From Scenedesmus sp. PABB004 (taxonomy: Eukaryota): 64,000 nucleotides of DNA. Both the position numbers and the translations under genes were made by a program. The notes beneath the pieces are model-generated. The model saw nothing but the letters and a program-made list of their open reading frames with translations. It was not told the origin of the DNA and did not search any database. Shown one piece after another: positions 94-63,900 of the stretch (position 1 is its first letter; each line of letters starts with the position of its first letter). The stretch spans positions 496,001-560,000 of the forward strand of contig JABVCE010000003.1 of NCBI GenBank assembly GCA_014905635.1. The letters run 5' to 3'.

Positions 94-6442
<6,349 letters not shown>

Positions 6443-6799
6443 GCCGCGCGGCTGCAAGGCGGCGGCGGCGGCGGCGGTGGCTAGATAGGGGGCGGGCCGG
6501 CGGCGAGGGAGGGAGGGGCGCGTGTACAGGGCGTGTGCGGCGGCCGCGCAGTGCGTGTCTGCACAGGAGTGCCTGCCCCGCGGCTTCACGGACCAGCACG
6601 CAGCACCAGGGGGGTGCGGCGGGGAGGGGCGGTGGGAGGGGCGGCGTCGGGAGGGGCGGTGGGAGGGGGCGGGCCGGCGTGGGGGCGTGCCGGCGTGGGT
6701 CGAGGCTGGACTCTTGCCGCCGCGGCTGTACAAACCGCCCGACACGCGGCGCTCGAGCGAGCGAGCGACGACCGAAGAGTTGCGGCTGGCCGGCCCAAG

Positions 6800-6804
6800 T
6801 GTAA
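6800..6804 (+). terminator. TGTAA polyadenylation signal (probably ISWI)
   Basis: TGTAA is the established chlorophyte poly(A) signal. This copy lies about 360 bp after the ISWI stop. Confidence 0.6.
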
Positions 6805-7089
6805 GCAGTTGCCAGGTCTGCTCGCGGCCGGCTGGCAGGCGGCGGCGGCCCGCAGCAGCGCGATGCTGCCAGCCAACCTGTGCGCCCGCCGCCGCTCCTG
6901 GGCGGGTGCGCCAGCCTGCGCCGGCCGGCTCGGCTAAGGGCCACGGTTACTTCACCTCGCCGCGCCGCGTCCCTGCCCGCTGCGCCCCGCGTCTGGCCGC
7001 ACACGGCGGCAGCGCGCGCAGCCGCCGGTGCCGAGCTCGCAGCCCCCGCGCGCGAGAGGCCGGCGACGTCCGCCTTGCGAGCCTCGTGC

Positions 7090-7210
7090 GCCTGGCGCGC
7101 CATGGACGGGGCCTTGGTCAGCAGACATGAACGTGGCCTTGGTCAACTGCTGAGAAAGGCAACGTTCATGGTCAGCAGACCAAGGCCACGTTCATGGGCG
7201 CGCCTGAGGC
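7090..7210. ncRNA. Long imperfect hairpin A, candidate miRNA precursor
   Basis: Stem traced by hand. 7094-7119 (GGCGCGCCATGGACGGGGCCTTGGTC) pairs with 7178-7204, 7126-7140 (CATGAACGTGGCCTT) pairs with 7156-7170, and the loop is 7146-7150. Intergenic and lower in GC than its flanks. Confidence 0.7.
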
Positions 7211-7225
7211 AGGCAGGACGCCCCT

Positions 7226-7412
7226 CGCGCCGGGGCCCTGGCAGGCGCGTGCACGACTGCAGAGGGGAGGGCCCGACCTCATCCCTAGGGCAGGCGCGTG
7301 ACTGCAGAGATGAGGAAGACCTCATATTTGCTGTCACGCGCCTGCCTGAAAGGATGAAGTCCCGACCCCATCTCTGCAATCACGCGGCGCGCCTGCCAGC
7401 GCGCCGGCGCGC
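7226..7412. ncRNA. Long imperfect hairpin B, candidate miRNA precursor
   Basis: 7288-7315 (GGGCAGGCGCGTGACTGCAGAGATGAGG) pairs with 7320-7347 around an AAGA loop. The stem extends via GACCTCATCC/GGATGAAGTC, TGCAGAG/CTCTGCA and CTGGCAGGCGCG/CGCGCCTGCCAG. Confidence 0.72.
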
Positions 7413-7868
7413 GGCTGTCGGATCCACCAACGCGCGCTCGCCGCCGGCGGCCCAGCGCACGTGGTCGCACGCCGCGACCACCGACGGGAGCGGCGCGTGA
7501 GGCGTGGCATGACGCTCCTGGGCGGGGCGGGGCGGGGCGGAGGGGGGAGGGCGCCACGCGCCCGCCGCTGGCCGCGCGCGGCGGCAGCGCGACGGCAGCG
7601 CTCGCGCGGCGGCCGCAGGGCGCGCAGGGCGTGCCGCGCCGCGCCGCGCCGCGCCGCCGTGCGACGCCGCTACCGAGCTGCTCCTGCCAGCGCCCGGCGC
7701 CGCCGCCGCAGCGCCTGCTGTTGCCGTGCGTCCTCCTCCCGCCATCACTTCAGCAGCACGGCACCGGCTCCCAGCTGGCCGCGAGCCCGCGTGCGCCGCG
7801 CCGCGGCGCGTGCCGTGCGGCGGGCCGCGGTCCTGCAAGGCTGGCGCACGCAGGGAGCGGCCCGCGCT

Positions 7869-7873
7869 TGTAA
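7869..7873 (+). terminator. TGTAA possible polyadenylation signal downstream of the hairpin pair
   Basis: TGTAA in intergenic DNA, with no convincing + strand CDS between it and the signal at 6800. Confidence 0.35.
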
Positions 7874-8042
7874 GCGGCATGGCAGGCTTCAGGGTCTGCC
7901 GCCGACGGCACCGCGGCCTGCGGCAGCACCGCCGACCCGCGCCGGGTCCGCCCACAGCTCCGCGCGCGAGGAGGAGGAGCGCCGCACGCCCCGCCCGCGC
8001 CGCGCCGCCGCCGGAGAGCGCGACCGCGCGGAGAGGAGCGCC

Positions 8043-11000
8043 ATGGCGTCCGGCAAGGTGGTGGCGCCCAAGAAGGTGCTGGAGATGATGAAGGAGGCCA
8101 CGGGCGCGACGGAGGAGGACATATGCGTGATGCTGCAGCTCTGCAACGGCGACGCCAACGAGGCGACAGAGAAACTGCTTGAGAGTAAGTGTCGGGCCCC
8201 CCCGCGCCGCCGCGCGCGCCATGGCCGCCCCGCGCCCGGCTCACACGTCGGCGGGCGCAGATCCCTTCGCGAGGGTGGAGTCCAAGAAGGACAAGCGCGC
8301 CAAGGTGGGGCGCACGGCGCGCGCATCAATCGCGCGCCGCGCGCCAAGCGCCCCTGGCGCGCGTAGGGCGCTCAGGCGCGCCCGCGCCGCCCGCAGTTTG
8401 AGGAGCAGCGCAAGAAGGACGCCGAGGTGCAGCGGCGCAGCGCAGACGTGCGGCGCGCGGCGCCGGGCTTCGCCCCAGGAGGCCGCGGCCGCGGCCGCGG
8501 CGAGGGCCGCGCGGGCCGAGGTGAGCGACGCGCCCCGGCGGCAGCGCCGCCCCGCGCGGCCTTCGCGCCCGCGTCCGGGCGTGGGGGGCCCCCACGCGCG
8601 CCGCCGCAGGCGCGGCCGCAACCGCCCATCACGCCCCCCGATCGCCGCGCCGCGCCCGCGCCGCCGCCCACGGCCGCCCGCCCCGCGACCGCAGGCGTCG
8701 GGCGCGGCTCGGGGCGCGGCGGCATGACCGGCGCGCCCAGCGGCAGTGCGCAGGCCGCCCCGGACGGGTGCGCGGCCGGCGCGGGCGCGCGGGGGGCGGG
8801 CGGCGGCGCCAGGGCGCGCCGCGCGGGCCCAGGGCGCGCCGGGAGCGGGCGGCCGGGCGCGGCGCCGCCGCCCCGCCGCGGGGCCCGCGCGCTCACGCCC
8901 GCCGCTGCCCGCGCGCGCCCGCGCCCGCAGCAACGGCTGGAGCGACCACACCGCCGCGCCGGCCGCGGAGGGCTGGGGCGCCGCGCCGGCCAGCGACGCG
9001 CCCGCCGCAGCTGCGGCGGCGCCCGCGGCCGAGGACGGCTGGGGCGCCGGCGCGGCCGCGCCCGCCGCGCCCGCCGCTGCCGCCGACGGCTGGGGCGCGC
9101 CGAGCCAGCCAGCAGCAGCAGCAGCAGCAGCAGCAGCCCCGCGCCCGCGCCGCGCCCGGCCAGCAGCGCCACCAAGCAGGGCGTGTCGTTCGCGAGCATC
9201 GCGCGGGTGCGCGCGCGGCGCGCCTCCCACCGGCGCGGCGCTGCGCGGCCGCGCAGCGCCGCGCTGGCCGCCGCGCTGGCGCCCGCGCTGGCGCGCCGCC
9301 GGACCGACCGCGCCGCGCCGACGACGCCCCGCCCTGTTCCGCCCCGCCCCGCCCCCAGGCGAAGGCCGCGCAGCAGGCGGCGGCCGCCGCCGCGCCCGCC
9401 GCGGCGCCGGCGGCGGAGAGCAGGCCCAAGGCGGGGGTGGCGGCAGCAGGCGCTGCCGCCGCGCCCGCCGCCGCGCCGGCGTGGGGCGCGCCTGCCGCGG
9501 CGGCGCCCGCCGCTGAGCCCGAAGCAGCTGCGCCCGCCGCCGGGCAGGGCCTGGGCCTGGCGGGCCTGGGCGGCACGGCCGTGAGCGCGCCTGCGGCCGC
9601 GGAGGCGCCCGCCGCGCAGGCGCAGCAGCAGCCGGCGGCGGCGGCGGCGGCGGCGCAGCAGCAGCAGCAGGCGCCGGCGGCGCAGCCGGGCCTGTACGGC
9701 CAGGGCGACGCCGGCGCCGGCGGCGCGGCGGCCAAGCCGTCGCCGCTGTACGCGGGCGCCGCGCCCGCGGCGTCGGCGGGCGGCGAGGTCGACGGCCTGC
9801 AGCTCACGTTTGGCAACTTCACGCTCAACAGCCCCGGCATGGCCGACTTTGGCGCGGGCTTTGGCGGCAGCAGCTTTGGCGGCGACGCGGCGGGCTCCGC
9901 GCCCGCGGCGGGCTCGGGCGACGTGTTTGGCGCCAAGCCCGCGGCGGCGCAGGCGCCGGCGGCGCCGGCGCCCGCGGCGCCCGCGGCCGCGGCGCCGCCC
10001 GCGCCCGCGGCGCCCGCGCCCGCGTCCGCGGCCGAGGCGGGCGGCTACAAGCCGCCCCCCGGCTACGGCGGCTACGGTGGCGCCGACAAGGCGCCCGCCG
10101 CGCCCGGCGCCGCGCCCGCGGGCGGCGCGCGCGGCGGCTATGGCGGGCTGCAGGGCTACGGCGGCCTGGAGAGCACCTTCGGCGGCGGCGCGGCGAGCGC
10201 GGCCGACGCGCCCGCGCCCGCGCCCGCGGCGGCCGCGTACGGCGACGCCTTCAGCGGCGCGGGGTACGGCGCGGACGCGCTCAAGCCGCCCGCCGCCGCG
10301 CCCGCGGCGGCCTACCAGGCCGCGGCCGGCGCGTACCGGGGCCAGCAGGGCGGCTACGGCGCGCCCGCGGCCGCGCACCCGCCCGCGCCCGAGGCGCCCG
10401 CGCCGCGGGCGGCGCGTCGGCCGCCGCGCCCGCGCCGGCGGCGAGCGCCGCGGGCGCCGGCGCGGCCGCGCCGCCGGCGATGCCGTACGGCAGCCAGGTC
10501 CCGCCCGGCGCGTACGGGGGCGGCGGGTACAACATGTACGGCGGCTACCCCAGCCAGATGTACGCGGGCATGTATGCCAACCCCTACGGCTACCCACCCG
10601 CGTACAACCCCTACGCGCCCAGCCAGGCGGGCTTCCCGCCGCAGCAGGCCGGCACGAGCAGCTACGGCGCGGCCGGCGGCGGCGCGAGCAGCTACGGCGC
10701 GCACGCGCACGTGCCGCGCTACAACCCCTACGGCCAGCAGGGCGGCGGCGCGGCGGCGCAGCCGGGCGGCGGCGGCGCCGCCGGCGGCGCGGGCGGCGCG
10801 GGCGGCTACGACGACGCGTCGGCCGCCGCCGCGGCGGCCGCGGCGGCGGGCAGCTACGGCGCGGCGTACGGCGCGGGCGGCTACGGCGGCGCCGCGGGCG
10901 CCAAGGACGACAAGAGCGGCGCCGCGCTGTACGGCGGCTACGGCCAGCAGGCGCAGCAGGGCAAGGCCGGCGGCGCGGGGCAGCAGGCCTACGACTACGG

Positions 11001-12934: not shown

Positions 12935-13161
12935 CCGGCGACGGAGCACCTGCGCCTCCACCACCCCCAGAGCGCCCTGCCGCCTCAGACGACCGGGCGG
13001 CGGCGGCGGCGGCGGCTGAGCGCCCTCATTGATTGATCTAGAGTTGGCGGGTTGGCGGGGTTTTCGGGCGGGTCGGGGTCGGGGTTTTTGCCGGCGCCGG
13101 AGCTCGGCGGCAGGGCCCCGCCGGCAGCGGCTGGCTGCCGTCCGAGCGTTGGCCGCCTGCG

Positions 13162-13166
13162 TGTAA
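13162..13166 (+). terminator. TGTAA polyadenylation signal
   Basis: About 230 bp downstream of the stop at 12934. Confidence 0.55.
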
Positions 13167-13563
13167 TAGTAGCGACAGCGCTGCCCGACGGGCCCCCGGC
13201 TGACGCGAGCGCTGCTGCCGCCGCCGGCCCTCGCTGCTCGCGCCCACGCGCGTGCCCGGCCCAGAGCTCGCGTGGAGGCGCACACGAGCTCCCGACTCAC
13301 GCGCTGAATTTGCACGCGGCCGCCCGGAGCCACCAGGTGCGCGGCTTTTGCTGCTGCCGCCGCTGCCGCCGCTGCCCCGCTGTCCCAGCTGCCGCTGCAG
13401 CGCCCAGCGCACCTTCACCCCACGCTGGGCGGCCATGCATCCGGCGCATCGCGCGTTCCAGGACTGGGCGCGCCCGCAGCAGCCAGCGCCCGCCCACGGC
13501 GCGCCCGCGCCGCCCACGGCGCGCCCGCGCCGCCGCGCAGGCCGCGCCGCGCCGCCAGCGCCG

Positions 13564-14494
13564 ATGTCGGCCGACATGGATGAGCACCTCGCCTGCGGCG
13601 TGTGCTTCTCGCAGTTCAACACCGACGACCGCCGCCCGTTCGATCTGGGCTGTGGCCATTCGTACTGCGAACACTGCCTGCGCACGAGCCCGCGCAGCTT
13701 CCGGGCGTGCCCCGAGTGCCGCGCGCGCGCCAACAACCCGCACGTGAACATCGGCCTGATGCGCCTCCTGCCGGCGCGCCGAGGTCCGGCGGCTCGGCCC
13801 CGCGAGGCGAACGCGGCAGCGCGGCGGCGCGTGAGGGCGCCCCCAGCCCCTGCACGGCGCGGCGCCCCGCGCGCGCGGCGCGCCGCGCGGGCGCGTCGGC
13901 GCGCGCGCCCTCATCGCCCGTGCCGCCGCCCGCGCCGGCAGGCCTCGCAGGGCCGAGCCGCCGGACCTCGGCGCGCCGGCGCGGCGGCAGCCCCGCGCCC
14001 TCCGCGCCGCCCGCGCCGGCGGCGGCGGCAGAGGCGGAGGACATCACGCCGCTGGCCTGGCTGCGCGCGGCGGCCGGCGCGGCGGGCGCGCCCGCCGCCG
14101 CCGCCGGCGCCGCCGGCGCCGCCGGCGGCGCGCCGCCCGCGCCGGCGGCGCTCGCGGGGCTGGCCGCGGAGCACCAGGCCAAGCTCGCGGCGTGGCGCAC
14201 CTCGCTCTGGCTCTGGCTCACGCCCCTGCTGGGCGTGCTCTACCTGTTGAGCCCGCTGGACATCATCCCCGACTTCCTCCCACTCATCGGTGAGCCGGCG
14301 GCGCTGGTGCTGGGCTGGTGCTGGGCTGGTGCTGCGGCACGCGGCGCGCCCGGCGCCCCGTCCGCTGCGGCGCCGACCCGTGCGCGCGCCGCCGCCGGCC
14401 GGCGCCAGGGTATGTGGACGACCTGCTGGTGCTCGCGTACGTCGCGGTCAGCGTGCTGCGCATGCTGGGCCAGCGGCGCGGCGGGGGCGGCTGA
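13564..14494 (+). CDS. C3HC4 RING + C-terminal DUF1232-type membrane hairpin (RNF170-like E3 ligase)
   Basis: CGVC-x15-CGHSYCEHC-x10-CPEC RING. C-terminal LYLLSPLDIIPDFLPLIG|YVDDLLVLAYV (intron 14290-14408) is the DUF1232/YkvA signature. The first intron boundaries are uncertain. Confidence 0.85.
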
Positions 14495-14937
14495 CCGCGC
14501 CGGGGAACGTTGCCACGGCTCGGCGAGCGTGCCGCCGCGCGCCCCGCGCCGTCTGAGCAGCAAAACAACAGCAACAATTGTTGAGGGGGGCGAGCCGCCC
14601 TCGCTCCTGCGCTCCTGCGCAGCGCAGTGCGACTTCAAAAGCAATGGGCAGCAACCTGCCGCCGCCGCCAGCCGGCATGTGTCTGCGTTTAGCACCGGCG
14701 CACGGACGCGCACAGCATGCGTGAGGGTTGTGACCGGCACACCCAGTCGCCGGTTCAGAGTTTGCAGCTTGCAGTGCTGCCGAGCGTGCAGCTTGCAGTC
14801 TTGCCGCAAGTGACAGCCTGGTGCGGAGGGGTGGCCCCGCCCGCCCCCTCTCCCTCCCTCACGCCTTGCGCCCCCCGCGCCGCCTGCGACCCGCACGCGC
14901 CCCCTCGCCCCCTCGCCTCCCGCGCGCCCCCCCCCCC

Positions 14938-17900
14938 TCACCACGTGCCCGCCGCGCGCGCGGCGGCGGTGCCGGGCGGCGCGTGCCTGAACAGCAGGTG
15001 CGCCACGACGCGCCACGTCGCGCCCCAGTCGCCGCCGCTGTCCACGTACACCGCCGCCGCGAGCGCCTCCACCAGGTCGGCCAGGGCCTTTGGGTACCGC
15101 GCCGGCGCAGCGCCGGGGCTGGGGAGACCCCAAAGAACAGCGGCCCCACCACCACGCCCGCCGCGGGGTGCAGCGCGACCGGCCGCGCCGGCGCGGCCTC
15201 GGGCGGCGCCGCCGCCGCGAGCGCGGCCGCGCCGGCGGGGCCCAGGCCGCCGCCCGCCGCGGCGCCGGCGGCGCGCAGGACCGCGAGCTCGCGCTTGCTC
15301 AGCCACACGGCGCTCCAGATCGCCGCCTCCTCGTCGCGCGCGCCGCCGCCGCCCAGGCGGCTCGCGAGCTCAGCGACGCCGCAGGCGCCGCCCGCGACAC
15401 CGCCGGCCGCGCCGGGCTCGCCGCCGCCGGCCGCGGGCGCCGCGCCGGGCGCGTCTGCCTGCCCGCCGGCGCCGCGCATGACCGCCTCGATCTCGCCAGC
15501 AAACGCGCGCACCGCGTGCAGCAGGCGCCACGAGTTGGCGTGCAGCGCGCCGTGCAGGCCCGACAGCGCGGCCGCGGTCGCGAGCGTGGCGTTGGCCACC
15601 GCCCCCGCGCGCGTCTTGGTCAGCTCCTCGGGCCCCAGGTGCCGCCTGCGGCGCGCCGAGGCGGCGGCGCCCGCGGCGTCAGCGGGGCGGCCCGGCCGCG
15701 GCGGCGGCAGTGCCCGGGGGCCAAGTGCGCTCGCGCGCCGCCGCCGCGCGCGCGCCGCCGCTCACTCGCGGCCGCGGCCGCCCGCGAGCGTGGAGAGCGA
15801 GACCACGAGGTCGAGCAGCGAGTCGCCGAGGAACTCGAGGCGCTGGTAGCTCGGCGCGCCGAGCACGCTCACGTGCGTGAGCCCCTGCACGAGCCACGCC
15901 GGGTCGCGGAACACGTACGGCACCCCCAGGCCCGCCAGCCGCGCCGCGAGCCGCTCGCCCAGGCCCGACCGCGGCTGCGCGGCGGCGCCGTACTGCGCGT
16001 GCAGCAGCGCGAGCGGCGTCGCCGCGGGGTCGGCCGCGGCCGGCGGCGGCATGGGGCAGCCGTGCACGTGCTCCGCGGCCCCTGCGCGCGGCGGCAGCAC
16101 CGGCGGCGGCGGCGGCGGAAGCGGCGGCGGCGGCAGCGCGTGAGCGCGCGCGCGCCGGCGAGCGCCTGCGTGGGCCGCCGCCCCGCGCCGCCGCGCTCAC
16201 CCGCCGGCAGCACCTCCAGCGCCTCACACAGCGCGGCCGCTGCGACGAGGCCGGGCGTGGACACGCGGTTCCACACCCAGTCCGCCGCCGCCGCCCACGC
16301 GTCGCCGCCGGCGGCGTCGTCGCCGCCGACGCGCGCCGCGGCCTCCTGCGCCGCGCTGGTGAGGTAAAAGGCCCCCACCAGCGCCTCCACGCCGTCGGCG
16401 AGGCGCTTGCCGCGCAGCGCGTGCTGCGGGCCGCCAGCAAACAGCCCAAGCGGCGGCTCCGCGCCCGTGGGCGCCCAGCGGCTGCCGTCGCAGGGCTCCA
16501 GGCGCAGCTGGTACTGCAGGCGCAGCGGCGCCGCCGCGCCGAGCTGCGCGAGGCGCGTGTTGCGCAAGAGCCGCGTCTTGCACAGCGACAGCTCGCCCTC
16601 GTTCGCGTCGCCCGGCAGCACCTGCGCCGCACGGACGCCGCCGCGCCGCGGCGCGCGGGTCGAGGCCGGCGGCGGCGCGGCGCGGCCGGCGGCGGCGGCG
16701 CAGCGCGGCCGTGTCCCACGGCGCGCGTCACCCGCGGCGCGCGCGTCCCGCGCGAGCGCGCTGCTGCGCGGCGCGCACCCTGATCATGCAGAGGGCGGCG
16801 AGTACCTTGAGCACGACGTCGCCGAGGAACTCGAGGCGCTCGTAGTCGAACGCCTCGTGCGCGCCGCCGCCGGTCAGCGCCATGAGCAGCAGCGGCGCCG
16901 ACGGCACCGCCACGCCCGCCCAGCGGCGCCCGGGCGCGAAGCGGCCGCTGGCTGCGGAGGCGCCGCCGCCGCGCCGCGCCGCGCCCGCGCCGGCGGGCGC
17001 GCACGCGTCCGCCTCGCCAGCGGGCGCGGGCGCCGCGCGGGCGCGGCGGGCGCCGGCGCCTGCGCCGCCCGCCGCGCGGCTGCCGGGGCGCGCGCCGTCG
17101 TCGTCGTCGTCGTCGTCGGCGGCTGCGGCCTCGTACACGCTGCACACGTCCACACCCAGCCGCGCCGTGACGTCGGACAGCATCTCCCGCATGCCCTCGG
17201 CCGGCCGCCAGCCATCCGCGCCGGCCGCCGCGACGTCGGCCGCGCCCGGCAGCGCGGGCGCGTTGGCGACGGCACCGGCGGCGGCCGGGCCGCCGCCGTG
17301 CATGAGCTCGGACAGCTGCTCCCGCACGCTGCGCGCGAGGAGGAGGCTGTCAAGCCGGAACATGAGGTGCGGCAGCAGCTGCAGCTGGCCCCACTGCGCG
17401 CCGTTGAGGGGGAGCATCCACGCGAGCTCCAGCGGCAGGAACGCGACGCGGTGGGCGGCGAGCACGCGGCGCTGCGCGGAGCGACTAAGCCCCGCCAGCG
17501 CCGCCGCCTGCGCGCCGACCGCGGCCGCGAGGCCGGGCGCCGTCGGCGCGGCGCCGTCCGCCGCGCCGCCGCCGCAGCCGGCGCCCGCCGCGAGCGCCGC
17601 CGCGTGCTCCTGCTGGCGCTCGAACAGCGCGAGCCGGTCGACGCGCCCCGTCGCCGCGGCGTCGCCGCCCGGCGCGCCCGCGCGCTGGCGCTTGTCCGGC
17701 GTCCAGGCCGCCCCGCCGTCGCCGCGCTCGGGCGCGCCGCGCTTGCGCGCGCCGCCGCCCTGCCGCGCGGCCCTGGCCGTCGCGAGCTCGGCCGCGAGCT
17801 CCTCCGCCTCGGCGGCGCTCAGCACGGGCGCGCCGGGCGCGGCGCCGGCGCCGCCCGGCGCGGGCGGCAGCAGGCAGGGCGCGGTGACGCCGCGGCTGAG

Positions 17901-19492
17901 CTTGACCGCGAGCAGCGGCAGGTCGCGGCGCAGCCCCGTCACGCCGCAGCGCACGCGGTAGTACTCCTCGTGGCTGTCCGCGCTCTCCCACACCCGGGCG
18001 CCCTCCGCGTCGCTGCCCACGCGCCAGCCCAGCAGGGGCCGGCGCTCGGGGTCGGCCTCCAGCAGGCTGCTGCTCATCACCAGTGCCGCGGCCATCTCCG
18101 GGTCGGCGCTCGCAAGCAGCGGCGCGACGGCGCTGAAGCTGAACCCGCCGCCGCCGCTCCCGCCGGCGCTCCCGCCGGCGCTCCCGCCGGCGCCGCCGCC
18201 ACTCCCGCCGCTCCCGCCGCTGCCGCCGCCGCCGCCGCCGCCGCCGGCCAGCCCCATTGTGCGCAGCTCTGCCCCGAGCGCGCTGACGGTGGCCGCGATG
18301 CTGCTGGCGGGCGTGAGCCCCGCCGCGACGCCCACCGCGCGATACACGGTGCTGCTGTGCCCCGCCACCACGACGCGGCCGCGCAGCGCGCGCTCCAGGC
18401 CGCACACGTCGGCCGCGGTCACGGCCGCGTGCACCGGCGCCATGGCCGCCGCGCCGGCGAGCGGCGGCGGGCGCCCCGCCGCGGCGGCGGCCGCGTAGGC
18501 GTCATCGCCCAGCGGCGCCGGCGGCGCCGGCGGCGGCAGCACCATCGCCTGCGCGTCCTGCGCCGGCAGCGGCAGCACGCCCACCGCCTCGGCGACCAGG
18601 CTCGCCAGCGGCACGACGCCGGTGGCCATGTCAGCGACCTGCGCCCAGTCGACGCACAAGGGCGCGCCGGGGCTGGGCGGCCGTCGGCGCCCGCGCGGCA
18701 GCCCGCGCCGGCGCCGCCGGCGTCGCCCGGGCGGAGCGGGACGATGAGATAGCTGAGGCTCTCGGGCGGCGCCCCGGGCTGGTCCTGACCCTCCTCCTCC
18801 TGCTGCTGCTGCTGCTGCTGCCCCGGGACGCGACCCCAGCCGACGGCGCGCCTGAGGATGTCTGGCTTGAGCGGCAGCATCGGCAGCCGCACCGGCGGCG
18901 CGGCCTCGCCGGCGGGGCCACCCTCGTCAGCGGGGCCCGCCTCGCCAGTCTCCAGCAGGTCCTCGCCCCCCGCCTCCTGGAGCAGCTCGTCTGCGTCTGC
19001 CGCGCCCGCCGCCGCTGCAGCCGCGCCTGCCGCTCCGACCCCGCCCGACGCCGCCGGCGCCGCCGGCGCCTCCGCCTGCGGCTGACCGGCCGCGCCGTCG
19101 ACCTCCATGGCGCTGCCGCCGTCCAGCCCAGCCGCCGCCTCCTCACGCGCCTGCTGCTCGCGTGCCTGCTTGCGCCACTGCGGGCGCGGCGCGCAGCGGG
19201 CGTAGCGCCCCGCTGAGCGGGAGCAGAGCGGAGCGGAGCGGCGCCGCGTGCCGTGCCGCGTGCTGTGCGCCGCGCGGGCGCTGCGTGCTCGCCTGGGTGC
19301 GCGTCTTGTCCCAGTTGATGTGCGCGTGGACGGCGCCCGCGTACGCAAGGAGCTGCTCCAGCTCGGCCTCGCTCAGCATGACGGGGCCCTCGTACACGAC
19401 ATCCATCTGGCGCAGCGGCGCCGGGGCGCGGGTGTGTGTGTGGGGATTGGCTCAGGCCACGGGGCCGGCGAGGCCGGGCGGGCGCTCGCCCA

Positions 19493-19533
<41 letters not shown>

Positions 19534-22500
19534 ACCACAAACGGCTCGCGCTCGAGCCACACCGGCCACTGCATCAGCCCGCCCTCTGGCAGGCGCTCCC
19601 AGAGGAGCACGCCGTACGAGAGCCGCGCCAGCGCCGCGCCGGGGCGGAGCCCGTTCGTCCCGCCCGGCAGCGCGGCGAGCGCGGCGTCGCTGCCGACGAC
19701 CGCGTTGAGCAGCGCAGCCTCGGCGCCGCGCAGCGCCGCGCCGCCCGCGGACGTCGCGGGCCGCGCGTCGCCGCGCGGGCCGTAGACAAAGGAGTGGAGG
19801 TGCAGCGTGAGCGCGCGCGGCGTGGCGCCGCCGGCGGCGCCCGGCTTGGGCGCGAGCGCGGGCGCGATGGGCCGCGGGTGCAGCGGCGCGCGCAGCCGAA
19901 TGGCGGCCGTCAGGCTGGGCAGCTTCTCCGACTCTGCGCCGGCGCGCGCGCGCGGCGCTCAGGCGGGGCAGCGCACAGCGGCGGCGCAGCGCGGCGCGGC
20001 GCGGCGCGGCGCGGGCGCGCACCCGTGAGCAGGCCCTCGCGCGCGCGGGTCCACGTCGGGCGCAGGCTGTCGTCGAGCTTGCCGGCGGCGTAGAGGCGCT
20101 GCAGCACGGCGAGCGCGGCGAGCTGCTTGCTCGCGCGCACGGTCACGCCCGGCGGCGCGTCGGCGACGCGGCTGGGCACGCCGGCGTTGCTGGGGAGGTA
20201 GACGGTGCTGTGGTAGAGGCCGTTGGCCATGCGCGTGGCGTAGTAGGGCTGCAGCGGCACCGCGGGGGACGAGCCCGGCAGCTTGGTGCAGAACTCGGCG
20301 AGCATCTTTGCCGCGTGGCGCAGCGTCGCGACCGCGCCCGTGGGCGTGACGAGGCGCTCGCCGTGCCGCGGCGGCTCGAGCCCCAGGCCCGCGCCGGGGC
20401 CGGCGCCGGCGCCGGGCGGCGCGGCGGCGCGCGCGGCGAGCGTGGCGCGGTTGGCGTCGCTCATCGCGCGCGCCGCCGCCTCCAGCGCGTCCACCTTGCT
20501 GCGCGGCGCGGCGGGCCCGGGGCGTCGGGGCGCCGCGGCGGCGGGCGCGGCGCGCACAGCACGCGCAGCACGCGCAGCGCGGCGCGCACCGTATGAGCTC
20601 CACGATGCCCGCGACGCCGCCCTCCTGAGTGAGCAGGCAGTAGCGTGCGCCCGCGCGGCGCCCGCGGCCGCGGCACTGGATGTATGACGTCGCGTCAAAC
20701 GGCACGTCGCCGCCGACCACGAGCGCGCACTGCCGGAAGTCCATGCCCTCGCTGCCCACGCTGCGCGGCGGCGGCGCGGAGGGGGAAGGACCGGCGGGCG
20801 CGGGGCGGGCGGGGAGAGAGAGCCGTGTTGGAGCTGCGCGGGCGCGCGGCGCGCGGCGCGGCGGGGCACAGGGGGCCTGCGGTGCGGCGGCGCGCGCACT
20901 TGGTGCAGACGAGCACGTTGGTGGCGCCGGAGCGAAAGTCGGCCACCACCTGGGCTTGTTGCTGCGGCGGCGGCGGCGCCGCGGCAGCGGCGCGCAAGGG
21001 TGAGCCCCGCTCCCCTGCCCGGCGCGCCGGCCACCCCCGGTTTGTTTGTGGAGCCCATGCAGAGGTCCCCCTTGGTCCAAGGCGGCGGCGCCCACCTGGC
21101 TGCTCATCGTCAGCAGCCCCTTGCCCAGCGCATCGCCGCCGCCGGTGTCGCCCATGAGGCAGCCGGCGCGCAGCAGCGCGCGCCGCGAGGGCAGGCTCGC
21201 GAGCAGCTTGGAGAGCACCAGCGCCGCGAGCTTGGTCTGCACGAAGACCATCGCCGCCCACCAGTCGCCCGCGCCGGCGCCGGCGGCGGGCACAAAGCTG
21301 GTGCGGTCGGCTTCAAGCAGGCGCAGCAGCTTCACCACCTTGTCGGTCAGCAGCGCGGGGCCGTGCCACGGCGCGAGCCCGGGCCGCGCGTCCTCGGGCC
21401 ACACCTGGCGCGCACGCGACACGCGCCGCGGCGGCGGGCGCGGGCGGGCGCGGGCGCGGCGAGGGCAGGGGCGGCGTGGGCGGGGCCCTGGCGGCACGCC
21501 CCGGCGCGGCCCTCGGCGGCAGCAGCAGCAGCGTGCACACCTGTGCCTCGAGCACGCCAAACGGCACGCGCCGCAGCAGCAGCTCCGCGAAGCCCTGCAG
21601 CGCGCCGCTGCTGCGCTGCTCAAAGTGGGGCTGCCCGCCTGCGGCGGCGGCGCGCGGGCGCGCGGGTCGGCGGCGCGCGCCCGGGCTGCGCACCTTCACC
21701 CTCAGCGCACCCGCGGCGGCCATGAGCTGGGCCTTGAGCTGCTTGTCGTCCAGCAGCACGTCCGCCAGTACGTTCATCGTCACCATCAGCGCGGCCTTGC
21801 AGGACAGGCGCAGCAGCCCGCGCGCGCACCACTCCAGCTCGACGCCGCCCGGCGCGGGCGCCGCGGCGGGCGCCGCTGCGCGCGCGGCGGCGGCGGCGGC
21901 CGAGGCGGGCAGGTCCTGCGGGCGCGGCTGCATCGCCGCGTCGAGCTCGGCGGGCGTGACGATGGCGGCCAGCTCGGGCTGCTCCGCGTGCGTGCGCAGG
22001 TAGCCAACCATGCCAGACAGCAGCGACCTGCGAGCCCAGGTGGAGCGGCGTGGAGGTCGGTGGCGCCGAGCAGCAGGGCCGGCGCGGCCGAGCGACGCGC
22101 GGGGCGGTGGCGGCGCGCCGGCAGCGGCGCGCCGCGCACCGCAGCTCCTGGAGCAGCAGCTGGGGGCTGCCGCTGAGGTCCTCCTCAAAGATGCGCCCGT
22201 TGTCGCCGCAGGTCCAGCGCGGCAGGCCCTCTGCGGCGCGGCGCAGGGGCGGCGCGGCTCGGGGCGCGGCGGCCGGCGCGGGCCGGCCCCCGCGGCGCAC
22301 GCAGCCCGGCGCCCGCACGCACGATCGTTGTCGCGCTTGCTGTACAGCGTGTCCGGGTCGTCCGAGTCGCCCGCGTCGCCGCTCCCCGCGTCTTCGCTGC
22401 CGATGGGGCTGCGCTCGCGCGCGGCCGCGTCGCCGCCGCCCTCGGCCGCGCCCGGGGGCGCCAGCAGGTCCAGAAAGGCCGCCGCCGCGGCGCACCAGGG

Positions 22501-24665
22501 GCCCAGGTTCTCAAGGCAGTACAGCACGCCGCGGATCTGGCGGCCAGCGCGGCGCGGCGCGGGCGGGAGGTGATGAGCGCGGCCGCCGCGCTGCCGTGGC
22601 CGTGCGGCGTGCGCGCACGCAGGCAGGCGCCCTGCGACCGGGGCCCGCGCGGGCCGCCGCCGCACCGACTTGTCCAGCGCCTGCACGCGGCCGCCCTCGG
22701 CAAACCCCTCAAACGCGGCCGCGCCGCTGCTGGGGCCGGCTGCGCGGCGGCGGCGCGGGCGGCGGCCGGGCGGGCGTGGGGCGGGCGCGGGCCCCCGCGG
22801 GCGCTGTGCCGCCGCGCCCGCCTGCCTCCGCGCGCGCCCCAAGACCCCGCACCATCGATGAGGCCCTCCGAGGCGAGCAGGTCTTGGCGGCGGAGCATCT
22901 CGCAGATCAGCTCACACCTGCCGGCGCCGCGTGGAGGCGGCCGGCGAGGCGGCCGTGGTGCGCGCGTCGGCCGCGCCGGTGCGCGCTGCGGGCGCGGCTG
23001 TGCGGGCGCGGCGCTGGGTGCGGGCGGCGCGGCGCCCGCACCGCCGCGCGGGCTTGAGCAGCTTGTCCTTGGTCCAGTGCAGCCAGGTGAGGCTGTCCGC
23101 GACGACGCCGCGCGCGGGCAGGGCCTCGTAGGTGAGCGTGTAGCTGGTGGGCCGGGGCACCGACGACTCGAGCTCCGCCCTGGCGGGCGGGGGCCCCCAC
23201 CCGAGCGACGGCGGGGCGCGTCGGCGGGGCGCGGCGCGCCGGCCGGCCGGCCGCCGCGCCGCGGGGCGCCCACGATGCGCGCGCACCGCAGCGGGCCGTC
23301 GCTGGGCACGGTGACGAGCAGGGAGTCCATGAGGGCCTGCAGGCCGGGGTGGTCGCGGCCGTGCTTGCGGCCGCGCGCGGGGTGCATGCCCTCGGGGCTC
23401 GCGGTCAGGCCCAGCACCTGGCGGGGCCCCCAGGGGGAGCGGAGCGGGGCACGCGCGCGCGTACGTGAGGGCGCCTGAGAGGCCGCACAGGCGCGCGCGG
23501 CGACGCTGCGCGTCGCGCGCCTGCGGCCGCTCGTGGCGTGGCAGCGCCGCGTAGTGGTCCTGCATGATCTGCGCGTACGCCGAGTCGGCCTTGGCGTGGT
23601 GGACCTCGTCAAAGACCAGCAGCCCCACGTCGCGCAGCTGGGAGGGAGGGAGAGGAGGAGGAGGGGCCGCGCAGCGGGGCGGCGGCGGCGGCGGCGCTCA
23701 GCGCGCACAGCGTGCGCGCAGCGCGCGCGGGGGGAGGCGCCCCGACCACCAGCCCGCCCGCCCGCCCGCGCGCCCGCCCGCCCGCCCGCCCACGCACCGT
23801 GAGCGCGCCGTGTGAGAGCACTGCGAGCAGCACAAACGGCGTCATCACCAGCACCTCCGTCTCAGCCAGCACCGCCTCCCACCGCGACCGGCCCCAGCGG
23901 CTCACGCCCGCGGCGCGCTGCCCGAGGCCGTGGAACGCGCGCGCGGCAAAGCCGTGCCGCTTGACCATCGCCTCGTCGCATTGCTGCGCGCGCGGCGCGG
24001 CGCGGCCGCGTCAGTCGGGCGCGGCCGGGTCGGGCCGGGTCGGGTCGGGGCGGCGCGCTGCGCCTGCTGCTGCGCCCGGTGCGGCAGCACGCCTGCACGA
24101 CGAGTGGGTTGGTTGCCGCGAGGAACACGGCCACACGGCGCGCGGCCTTGAGGGCGGGCAGGTGCCGGCGGATGACCTCCGCGGCGATGAGCGTCTTGCC
24201 GGCGCCTGCGGGGGGTCGGCGGCGTCGGTGGGAGCGCGGGGGCGCGGCGCGCGTAGGCGCAGGCGCGGGACGGCACGGGGGCCGCCCGCCGCGCACCGGT
24301 TGCCAGGGAGATGATCACCTGTGCACGCGGCGGGCGGCGGGCGGCGGGGGGTCGATCAGCGCTCGCGAGCGGCGGCGCTGTGCGCGCTGCGGCGCCCGGC
24401 GAGGCGGCAGCTCGCCGGGCGTGCCGGGCGCGGCGGTGGCTGCCCTTAGCCGCCCCTAACGAGGCGTGGATCGGGTGCGCCCTGCTGGGGCGCGCTCGCG
24501 CTCGGCGGCGGCGCTGCTGCTGCAGCGGGCGCGCCGGCCGCCGGCGCTCACGTTGTTGTTGGCCGCCAGCTCGGCGAGTTCGGCTTGGTAGCCTCGAGGC
24601 TTCAGCCCCACACCCGGTCCGGCCGCAGGCGACTCCCGCGCCGCGCCCTGCTGCTGCTCGCCCAT
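14938..24665 (-). CDS. DCL: Dicer-like ribonuclease (DExH helicase, DUF283, PAZ-like, RNase IIIa, RNase IIIb)
   Basis: Helicase motifs: LKPRGYQ, SLATGAGKT, LLVFDEVHHA, VLGLTASP, MVFVQTK, FRSGATNVLVCTSVGSEGMD, YIQCRGR. DUF283: LAEFCTKLP...ALAVLQRLYAAGKLDDSLRP. Two RNase III signatures: YERLEFLGD / ADGVEALVGA and YQRLEFLGD / ADLVEALAAAVYVDSGG. Multi-exon; exact ends approximate. Confidence 0.95.
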
Positions 24666-25029: not shown

Positions 25030-25034
25030 TTACA
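25030..25034 (-). terminator. TGTAA polyadenylation signal (FHA-RING gene)
   Basis: TTACA on the + strand, about 25 bp past the minus-strand stop at 25060. Confidence 0.55.
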
Positions 25035-60902: not shown

Positions 60903-63900
60903 ATGGAGGGCCAGCCTCCCGGCGCGCCCGGCGCCCCCCAGGGCGCGCCGCTCTGGGCGCCGCCTGACGCGGGCACGGTGCCCCTTCCGGGCCCGCCGCC
61001 GGCGGGCAACGGCTTTGCGCCGGCGCCGCTGGGCGCCGAGTTTGCGGGCGCGCAGCTCGGGGGCGTGCCCCCGGGCCTGAAGCTCGAGGACGGCCCGCCC
61101 GGCCCGCCGGGCCTGCCGGGCCCGCCGGGCGCGCCGCCGGCCGGCGGCGTCGCGGCGGCGATGCTCGCGGCGGCAGCAGCGGCGGCGCCGGGCGCGGCGC
61201 TCGTGCCGGGCGGCGGCGGCGGCGGCGCCGACGCCGGCGGCCTGGTGCTGCCGCCGCACCCGCTGCAGCAGGGCTTCGTTCTGCCGCCGCACCCGCTCAT
61301 GCAGAAGGGCTTCGTGCTGCCGCCGCACCCGCTCATGCTCCCGCCGCCGGGCGCGCCGGGCGCGCCGGCGCCCGAGCCGGCGGCGCCGCCGGCGCCCGCG
61401 GAGCCGCGCAAGCGGCGCCACAAGTGGGGCCCGCCCGCGGCTGGCGACTGGGGCGACGACGAGGGCAAGCCCAAGAAGCGGCGCAGCCGCTGGGAGTCGA
61501 ACGACACGCAGATCGTGCCCATGTCCAACTCGGGCGCGATCATCATCCCCGGCCAGCTGCCCAAGGAGGTCACCGTCTGCGGCGGCCTCAAGGTGCGGCG
61601 CGGTCGTGGCGGCGGCGCCGGCCGCGGTCGCGCAGGCCTGCCCGCGCGCCCGCAGCCCCCAGCGCCGCGCCGCGCCCCCGCCGGCGGCCGCGCCTCACGC
61701 CCCCCCCCCCCCCCCCCCCCGCGCCCGCCCCAGATCGTGCTGGCCAACCCCGGGTCGGTGTGCGCGTCGAACGACCCCAAGGTGCTCGCGATGCACGAGC
61801 AGCTGAACGAGATCCACCGCAAGATCCTCAGCGGCCAGCTCGACATCCCGCCCGAGCACGAGCGCAGCCCCAGCCCGCCGCCGACGTACGACGCGCACGG
61901 CAACCGCACCAACACGCGCGAGATTCGGTGCGGCGCGCGCGCGCGGCGGCGGGCTGCTGCGCAGCGGCGGCGGCGGCAGGCGCGCGCGGCACGCCCCGCG
62001 CTGCGCGCGCCCCGGCTGCTCACCGCCCCGCCTGTGCGCGCGGCCCACCGCGCGCAGCACGCGCGAGAAGCTCATGGAGCGGCGCAACCGGCTGATCGAG
62101 GACATCCTGAAGCACGACCCCACCTACCACCCGCCCTCGGACTACAAGCCGCGCAAGCTCGTCAACAAGGCGCGTGCCCGCGGCACGCGCGCCGCCGCGC
62201 CGCGCCTTGCCACGCACGCTCTGATGTGCCTTGCCTGATCTCCATCCCATCTGATCTAGCCTCATCTCATCTGATCTAGCCTCATCTAATCTCTCTGTCT
62301 GTCACCGCCGGGCGCAGGTGTACATCCCGCTAAACGAGTACCCGGGCTACAACTTCATCGGCCTCATCATCGGCCCTCGCGGCAACACGCAGAAGCGCAT
62401 GCAGCGCGAGACCAACTGCAAGATCGCGATCCGCGGCAAGGGCAGCGTCAAGGAGGGCGCGGGGCGCGACATGAAGTACGACTACGGCGAGGACGACGAG
62501 CTGCACGTGCTCATCACCGCAGAGTGCCAGGAGGACGTGAGCGCGCCGCGCGCGGGCGGGAAGGGGCGGGGGCGGGCCGGGGCGGCTGCAGGCGGGCAGG
62601 GCGCAGCTGCTGGCAGCGCGCGCCGCCGCGCGGGGGCCCGCCGCCGCGCCCCGCATCACCCGCCCCCGCCCTGCGTCGTCTCACCCGCGCCCGCGCGCCC
62701 CCGCGCCCCCGCCCGCGCGCCGCGCCGGCGCAGCTGGACCGCGCGACGGCGATGATTGAGAAGCTCTGCACGCCCGAGGACGACGAGCACAACATGCACA
62801 AGCAGCTGCAGCTCCGCGAGCTCGCCGCGCTCAACGGCACGCTCAAGGACATCTCCGCCTGCTACATCTGCGGCGAGCCCGGCCACGAGGCGGAGCACTG
62901 CCCCAAGAAGGCGCGCGCCCGCGCCCGCCGCCGCCGCCGCGCCGCCGCGCCGCGCGCGCGCCCGCCACCTTGCGCCCGCGCCCGCCACCTCGCGCCCGCG
63001 CCACCTCGCGCCCGCGCCGCCGCGCCCGCGCCGCCGCGCCCACCACCTCGCACCCACCCCGTGTCGCACCGACCGCGCGTCGCGCCCGCTGCCGCTGCGT
63101 CGCGTCGCGCGCAGGCGGCGGACGTGTACAAGCTCCCCGAGCAGATGCTGACCAAGGTTCAGGAGCAGTACGAGCGCGACGTCGCGCGCGTGCACGGCGG
63201 CCCCGTCGTGAGCATGGACGCCGAGTACAAGTCCTTCCTCGCGGAGCTCGGCGGCGGCCCGCCCCCGGAGCTCATGGGCCTCGACCCGCTCACCGGTGCG
63301 CGCGCGTGTGGGGTGGGGGCGTGGGTGGGGGGTATGGGTGAGGAGGGCCAGGGCTTGGGCGCGGCGCTTGGGCCGACGCGGCCGCGTGCGCGGCGCGCCG
63401 CCGGCCCCGCCGCCGACCCCGCTGCCGCGCGCCCCGCCGCCGCGCGCCCCGCCGCCGCCGCAGGGCTGCCGCCCAAGACGGCGGGCGACCTGCCGGACGA
63501 GTGCAAGCTCTTTGTGAGCAACCTGCCGCCCGCGTACAACAGCGACATGCTGCGCCAGCTCTTTGAGCCCCACGCGCCCGTCGTGCACGCCGCGGTCATC
63601 ACCGAGCCCGGCAGCGGCGTGAGCCGGGGCTACGGCTTCATCCACATACCAGACGCGACCACGGTGCGGGCCCGCGCGCACGCGCAGGGCCCTGGCCGCC
63701 CCGCGCCGCGCGCCGCGCCGCGCCGCGCCGCGCCGCCCGCCGCGCCGCGCGCCGCGCCGCCCTCCGCGCGCCGCGCGGCCCGGCCTCGCCCGTGCGCCCG
63801 CCGACCCGCGCGCCGACCCGCCGACCCGCCCGCCCGCCCGCCTGCCCGGCTGCCGCCCCCGCGCTGCAGGCGCGCGCGACGCGGCAGCTGATGGACGGCA

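Follow-up and report, generated by a model that had tools for sequence, protein, structure and literature searches.

Two long, imperfect fold-backs stand in tandem between an ISWI-like gene and a gene with a UBA-like GIP1_N domain, and the question that they raise is whether such a pair is a source of small RNAs or DNA that folds for some other reason. A sequence-only reading of the region had proposed a pri-miRNA cluster, which is plausible. Here we describe the fold, the internal architecture and the genomic setting of the pair within the window (the whole stretch of DNA that was analysed, 64 kb), and we weigh the small-RNA reading against a mobile-element relic or inert palindrome, an RNase III-dependent terminator, a cis-regulatory module and an assembly artefact.

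Two strong fold-backs lie in tandem

Hairpin 1 (7090–7209) is a fold-back of 120 nt with a 5-nt terminal loop, and hairpin 2 (7217–7418) is a fold-back of 202 nt with a 4-nt terminal loop; both are provisionally assigned to the plus strand. Hairpin 2 measures 187 nt when taken as 7226–7412 and 202 nt when its GC-rich base is included (7217–7418), and the spacing between the two hairpins is 7–16 nt, in line with the gap of about 15 nt that had been claimed. On the plus strand hairpin 1 formed 49 pairs (31 GC, 17 AU and 1 GU); hairpin 2 formed 77 pairs on the plus strand (4 GU) and 80 pairs on the minus strand (7 GU). We compared the folds with dinucleotide-shuffled controls, using 200 shuffles for hairpin 1 on the plus strand and 100 shuffles per strand for the region 7050–7450. 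Hairpin 1 (folded as 7085–7215) reached a minimum free energy (MFE) of −85.7 kcal/mol on the plus strand, compared to a shuffle mean of −50.5 (z = −9.94; none of the 200 shuffles folded as well), and it folded nearly as well on the minus strand (−81.1; z = −9.60). For hairpin 2 (folded as 7215–7420) the corresponding values were −146.4 on the plus strand (z = −11.09) and −155.7 on the minus strand (z = −12.04). Folding of the entire region 7050–7450 yielded z-scores of −12.32 (plus) and −14.50 (minus), and on neither strand did any of the 100 shuffles fold as well. With individual z-scores ranging from −9.6 to −12.0 over both strands, two long fold-backs are indeed present at the place given by the sequence-only reading and, as it had also stated, they are unrelated, with no core sequence common to both.

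Both stems persisted when they were folded in a context of 1066 nt (6825–7890), with a mean pair probability of 0.94–0.97 on either strand. In this context, hairpin 1 was slightly more stable on the plus strand (−79.6 vs. −75.4 on the minus strand; 1 vs. 0 GU pairs) and hairpin 2 was more stable on the minus strand (−152.8 vs. −143.0 on the plus strand; 7 vs. 4 GU pairs). The G-U counts favour the plus strand for hairpin 1 and the minus strand for hairpin 2, and the strand signals of the two folds thus disagree.

To place the pair among all folds of the window, we conducted two fold censuses of the whole 64 kb in which the MFE was regressed on GC content; BLAST-based censuses of inverted repeats were dominated by low-complexity matches of high GC content and failed to detect hairpin 2, and the fold censuses were used instead. 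With segments of 130 nt at steps of 25 nt (2555 per strand), the two hairpins lay at −4.3 and −4.0 SD on the plus strand and at −4.2 and −3.9 SD on the minus strand, while the best segment outside the pair reached only −2.9 SD. With segments of 230 nt at steps of 40 nt (1595, plus strand only), the hairpin region lay at −4.2 SD, followed by 13761–13990 at −3.1 SD. Since the hairpins are the top outliers in censuses that were regressed on GC content, the fold-backs are genuine and do not simply reflect GC richness: the pair constitutes the strongest fold-backs of the 64-kb window.

Four copies of a unit make up each hairpin

A detail that goes beyond the first description of the locus is that each hairpin consists of four copies of a unit of its own, arranged in the order direct, direct, inverted, inverted. 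In hairpin 1 the units are 25 nt long (7101–7125 and 7126–7150 on the plus strand; 7146–7170 and 7172–7196 on the minus strand) with a mean column identity of 89% and 16 invariant columns. The units of hairpin 2 are 27–55 nt long (7237–7288 and 7286–7325 on the plus strand; 7313–7349 and 7347–7401 on the minus strand) and have a mean column identity of 70%. Units 2 and 4 of hairpin 1 are identical over 19 nt, although the MFE fold does not pair them with each other. Among the paralogous helices of hairpin 1 (internal units compared), no compensatory double change was found, since each difference is confined to one copy, as a one-sided singleton; inspection of the hairpin 2 units by eye likewise revealed one-sided differences and no compensatory changes. 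Selection on the RNA is therefore not apparent from the internal units. The simplest origin of each hairpin is a tandem duplication combined with an inverted duplication of a short unit.

The pair occupies non-coding DNA of low GC content

The gene to the left of the pair encodes an ISWI-like protein, pieces of which (SNF2-rel_dom, Helicase_C, HAND and SLIDE) run on the plus strand from the left end of the window to about 6100. When the SLIDE exon was used as a query, five proteins were matched, of which the best named one was from Tetradesmus obliquus, and a tblastn of these proteins onto the window recovered about 19 exon pieces, the last of them at 6239–6439. This exon reaches the C-terminus of the Tetradesmus obliquus protein P0002 (70% identity over 63 aligned positions), and its identity to the C-terminus of a second protein, P0003, is 66%. 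Based on this homology to chlorophyte ISWI C-termini, the last coding exon is 6239–6442 on the plus strand and ends with a TGA stop at 6440–6442. A stop formed by the TAA inside the TGTAA at 6800 was also considered and was rejected, as the C-terminal alignments place the stop at the TGA. To the right of the pair and on the same strand, the first coding exon of the gene with the GIP1_N (UBA-like) domain spans 8043–8185, with an ATG at 8043, 24 nt ahead of the start of the domain match, and a GT donor at 8186. The hairpin pair is located 648 nt after the ISWI stop and 620 nt before this ATG.

Across the interval between the two genes (6443–8042) the range of GC among codon phases was at most 0.20, compared to 0.42–0.58 in the flanking exons, and no Pfam match was obtained; the claim that the hairpins lie in non-coding DNA between ISWI and the UBA-like gene is therefore upheld. 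A coding reading of the hairpin region itself was rejected on the same grounds (no periodicity, and no Pfam match on the frames across it). The hairpins are also poorer in GC than their surroundings, as had been noticed: the cores have 56% and 58% GC and are among the lowest 100-nt segments of the 64 kb, where the mean is 79.7%, the first percentile 62% and the median of non-coding DNA 80%.

With respect to composition in general, non-coding DNA in this window is richer in GC than coding DNA (median 80% in 100-nt segments), and most of the segments with the lowest GC are exons with a strong third-position GC of 0.9–1.0. The GC minimum of the window (51%) falls in a short intron-like segment at 62205–62310, which carries a tandem repeat of about 20 nt and is situated between two coding stretches.

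TGTAA signals flank the pair

The word TGTAA is the polyadenylation signal of chlorophytes, and the sequence-only reading had placed the hairpins between two such words, at 6800 and 7869; both are present on the plus strand. Since the ISWI stop is fixed at 6440–6442, the TGTAA at 6800–6804 is 358 nt past the stop, a normal length for a 3′ UTR, and is likely the ISWI poly(A) signal, while the TGTAA at 7869–7873 has no coding gene of its own. The pair begins 290 nt past the former and ends 450 nt before the latter. The orphan TGTAA, which is 174 nt ahead of the next ATG and has ISWI as its only upstream coding gene, is a candidate for the signal at which a hairpin-carrying transcript would end. 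Its position may fit the end of a plus-strand RNA of this kind, be it an extended ISWI isoform or an independent non-coding transcript; as the hairpins lie beyond the first TGTAA, they would be within ISWI mRNA only if the signal at 6800 is bypassed. The placement of the two words is also the sole hint, and a slight one, as to the strand of the hairpins.

Quantification of TGTAA in the window revealed 8 occurrences where 3.0 were expected, a number reached in 1 of 100 shuffles, and we calculate that a plus-strand TGTAA would occur in the 1.2-kb spacer by chance with a probability of about 3–11%, depending on the density assumed. No minus-strand TGTAA was found in the spacer between ISWI and the GIP1-like gene. 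Elsewhere in the window, a TGTAA at 13162 is positioned between the long GIP1-like ORF and a RING-finger gene, and a minus-strand TGTAA at 25030 between an FHA gene and a Dicer-like gene. Downstream of the Dicer-like gene, none was found on its own strand (13000–15765, minus), indicating that not every gene here uses TGTAA.

Possible cutting by a Dicer-like enzyme

The Dicer-like gene, which serves as context only, is represented by minus-strand ORF pieces with profile matches at 15765–24314. A Ribonuclease_3 match at 15872–16783 scored 30.2 bits (cut-off 27) and a Dicer_dimer match on the same strand 49.9 bits; a Ribonucleas_3_3 match at 15765–16196 (20.1 bits) and the Helicase_C and ResIII pieces, which extend up to 24314 on the minus strand, were below their cut-offs. 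The RNase III-type and Dicer_dimer pieces indicate that the organism encodes a Dicer-like enzyme. The presence of such a gene nearby, as claimed in the sequence-only reading, is thus borne out, and the distance of 7.5 kb given there has to be corrected to 8.3 kb, measured from hairpin 2 to the nearest RNase III piece at 15765.

Our tentative reading, to which we give somewhat less than an even chance, is that the pair would be transcribed as a plus-strand hairpin RNA and cut by a Dicer-like enzyme, and that it resembles a young hairpin-siRNA or proto-miRNA locus; such a locus is more likely than a canonical miRNA cluster. In the sequence of events that we propose, a short unit would have undergone local tandem and inverted duplication to yield each fold-back, and the hairpins would be transcribed, on the plus strand, downstream of the ISWI poly(A) signal. 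The carrier could be ISWI mRNA, as a read-through product or as an isoform with a long 3′ UTR, or else an independent non-coding transcript whose 3′ end follows the TGTAA at 7869. A Dicer-like enzyme would then cut the stems of 49 and 77 bp into RNAs of about 21 nt, in a manner that we model on DCL3 of Chlamydomonas, an enzyme that cleaves hairpins located in introns, UTRs and non-coding transcripts. Loci that are young in evolutionary terms and yield heterogeneous small RNAs typically have long, near-perfect fold-backs, and plant and algal MIRNA genes can be born by inverted duplication. Stems that are this long and nearly perfect, and that are made of repeated units, point to a heterogeneous population of hairpin-siRNAs or proto-miRNAs rather than one precise miRNA/miRNA* pair. 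Those features of the sequence that could be checked agree with a hairpin small-RNA unit, namely the stability and rank of the folds, the non-coding setting, the low GC of the cores, a downstream TGTAA on the plus strand only, the presence of a Dicer-like gene and the lack of a further copy in the 64 kb; the indirect comparisons at the RNA level (covariation, G-U counts and target sites in the window) were neutral.

A precursor of a plant or algal miRNA is expected to be a single fold-back of up to about 300 nt that holds a duplex of 20–24 nt with few mismatches. Both hairpins (120 and 202 nt) have the size and the duplexes of such a precursor, which speaks for compatibility only. When 21-nt segments were scored for their ability to form a duplex (17 or more of 21 nt paired, and no more than 4 unpaired per side), 68 of the 100 segments of hairpin 1 and 77 of the 182 segments of hairpin 2 passed on the plus strand, and 67 of 100 and 125 of 182, respectively, on the minus strand. 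We searched the rest of the 64-kb window for sites near-complementary to the 21-mers of the hairpin cores and, allowing up to 3 mismatches, found none, whether in the ISWI, GIP1-like and Dicer-like genes or elsewhere; in the Dicer-like gene, the core 21-mers had no match of any kind within 3 mismatches. The GC-rich base of hairpin 2 (about 7216–7240 and about 7380–7420) did contain 21-mers with sites elsewhere in the window at 2–3 mismatches. A search of the window against Rfam gave no match at gathering scores, and with permissive E-values it gave generic hairpin matches only (21–31 bits, where the gathering scores are 63–100), the best of which was mir-3158 (30.7 bits; gathering score 97).

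The system that the pair most invites comparison with is the set of DCL3-dependent hairpins of Chlamydomonas reinhardtii (PMC4817775). Most miRNAs of that alga are encoded within the introns and UTRs of coding RNAs, and others derive from non-coding RNAs; miRNAs were located in the UTRs of 13 mRNAs and siRNA precursors in the UTRs of 26 (PMC4817775). Another 9 mRNAs have hairpins that yield no small RNAs, and these transcripts rise in dcl3 mutants; Valli et al. (2016) propose in the same text that DCL3 cleaves such hairpin mRNAs directly (PMC4817775). As in Chlamydomonas, the stem-loops described here are long and are situated in non-coding parts of, or beside, protein-coding units, and they occur in a chlorophycean with Dicer-like genes as lineage-specific hairpins that match no curated miRNA family (PMC4817775). 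In contrast to the Chlamydomonas DCL3 hairpins, the present ones are known from sequence alone, are placed past the first TGTAA that follows ISWI, and form a tandem of two unrelated hairpins with four units each. The pair shares its near-perfect and long stems with miRNA loci that arose by inverted duplication or from MITEs, and differs from them in that no similarity to a founder gene or element family was found in the window or the scanned collections. In the Mychonastes homosphaera genome paper the entry is ‘miRNA number 0’, for a genome of 72.4% GC, and a limited literature search surfaced no small-RNA studies of Sphaeropleales.

If transcribed and diced, the pair would represent a small-RNA locus specific to its lineage, in a chlorophycean group to which neither Chlamydomonas nor Volvox belongs, and its four-unit architecture would then be a snapshot of how a hairpin gene is built. 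At present it is a well-documented candidate, and its value is that of a precise target for small-RNA-seq.

Alternative explanations for the pair

The hairpins may instead be inert DNA palindromes without a function at the RNA level, either fold-back or MITE-like relics with sub-repeated arms or products of template switching during replication, the main rival explanation, which we regard as rather unlikely and which has several observations on its side. Fold-back elements have arms made of sub-repeats that run direct and are then mirrored, and the direct-direct-inverted-inverted layout of both hairpins matches this, as do their small size and their non-host composition: a GC content far under that of the surrounding non-coding DNA is expected of a recent insertion. 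The low GC and the unit layout fit a fold-back mobile element equally well as a small-RNA locus. Moreover, the structure is strand-symmetric, and every difference between the arms affects one side only, which is the pattern of neutral decay. Copy number speaks the other way, as the pair, unlike fold-back transposons and MITEs, is single within the window and the scanned collections, with no second copy of either core in the 64 kb. A 19-mer of hairpin 1 did find 20 loci on metagenome contigs, each with a single match; the similarity extended over only 20–37 nt in BLASTN and the contigs had 49–75% GC, so that we regard these as chance matches. Viral contigs, scanned with one word per hairpin, gave 0 matches for either, and in a search for ORFs on other copies, with residues 90–210 of the open frame at 6805–7500 as the query, none of 2407 candidates scored. 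Nor was a convincing target-site duplication found. The core of hairpin 1 (7101–7196) is bordered on both sides by the 7-mer GGCGCGC, as an insertion might be, but this is among the commonest words in the 64 kb (221 on the plus and 258 on the minus strand, 479 together), it is near-palindromic, and the stem of hairpin 1 continues past it; hairpin 2 has no flanking repeat beyond 4 GC-only bases. Insertion would further require the coincidence of two unrelated elements 7–16 nt apart. A mobile origin and a small-RNA function can also go together, for hairpins derived from MITEs are known to give rise to miRNA-like loci in plants (PMC9641971). That both palindromes are artefacts of the assembly, stemming from a chimeric fold-back read, is scarcely credible. 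Long-read libraries can create palindromes, and artefacts of this type are long, perfect inverted duplications; the arms of the present pair are imperfect, with substitutions and indels (identity of the hairpin 1 arms about 81%; 85–92% in blocks), and the palindromes are short (100–200 nt), nested in unique sequence and different from each other. The imperfection of the arms and the occurrence of two different palindromes make an artefact unlikely.

Two further explanations keep a function for the pair and would move it from the small RNAs to the neighbouring genes. RNase III can serve in fail-safe termination: in yeasts, Rnt1 cleavage sites downstream of poly(A) sites act as fail-safe terminators and boost nearby weak poly(A) signals (PMC2779338), and cleavage of a stem-loop by Pac1 triggers termination (PMC8421224). 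The pair is similar to these Rnt1 and Pac1 stem-loops in being strong and in its place between the next gene and a poly(A) signal a short way upstream (PMC2779338, PMC8421224). Applied to the present locus, read-through RNA would be cut at the hairpins and 5′–3′ degradation would stop the polymerase before the next promoter, which would make the pair a fail-safe terminator or insulator, with small RNAs as by-products of cutting by a Dicer-like or another RNase III; we deem this improbable. Consistent with it are the location between the probable poly(A) signal of ISWI, 290 nt upstream, and the next same-strand ATG, 620 nt downstream, the two independent strong stems in series, the RNase III-domain gene in the window and the orphan TGTAA at 7869, which could be a back-up signal. 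That the pair is specifically a Dicer-like or RNase III-dependent terminator that shields the next same-strand gene, with the TGTAA at 7869 as the back-up poly(A) signal, is a distinctly improbable proposal. Against termination, neither census showed a comparable hairpin behind any other TGTAA in the window. The Rnt1 substrates of budding yeast have an AGNN tetraloop and a short stem, whereas the plus-strand terminal loops here (5 nt in hairpin 1 and AAGA in hairpin 2) are not of the AGNN type, the stems are far longer and the host is an alga; we know of no RNase III termination pathway in green algae. If the terminator reading were true, the unit structure would record growth of the hairpins by repeated local duplication, and RNase III termination would be extended from yeasts to green algae and linked to the birth of small-RNA genes. 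Alternatively, the units may be protein-binding sites in both orientations that form a cis-regulatory DNA module of the GIP1-like gene, the fold being incidental, which we hold to be very improbable. Such an array is possible because the unit sequence is kept, not only the pairing: the 25-nt unit occurs four times with 16 invariant columns, and copies 2 and 4 agree over 19 nt though they do not pair with each other. The unit contains an ACGTGGC-like core, which presumably resembles the ACGT-type elements of plants, and the repeats are 0.6–0.95 kb upstream of the GIP1-like ATG. Binding sites, however, do not need a perfect mirror symmetry of long units, and a plus-strand TGTAA separates the repeats from the gene.

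Other hairpins and observations in the window

A third long hairpin was observed at 13766–13985, whose outer stem of about 39 bp is nearly perfect and which has an MFE of −203.9 on the plus strand (z = −7.9) and −218.7 on the minus strand (z = −10.3). As it has no codon periodicity and is located between the RING- and DUF1232-coding parts of a plus-strand gene, it is probably intronic, and as a candidate substrate of Dicer it is on a par with the tandem hairpins. In addition, the ISWI intron at 4189–4476, between the exon pieces 4021–4188 and 4477–4656, folds into a long hairpin (MFE −210.9; z = −4.9; 0 of 200 shuffles as good).

The palindromic 8-mer GGCGCGCC recurs at the base of the stem, or close to it, in each of the three long hairpins, approximately at 7094–7101, 7198–7205, 7391–7398, 13776–13783 and 13970–13977; the word is common (79 per strand in the 64 kb), and its placement at the stem bases may be due to chance.

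Lastly, a search among sequencing runs listed no RNA run with the locus and two freshwater metagenome DNA runs, each of which contained 9% of the words of the window. At 85% likeness the matches were mostly GC-rich noise from other organisms and gave no usable coverage of the hairpins. Among them, however, run X1 contained two pieces of 151 nt each (7804–7954 and 8066–8216) with 0 differences, and run X2 a piece of 357 nt (8036–8388) with 3 differences and 1 gap. These identical or nearly identical pieces indicate that the alga, or a very close relative, is present there at low depth.
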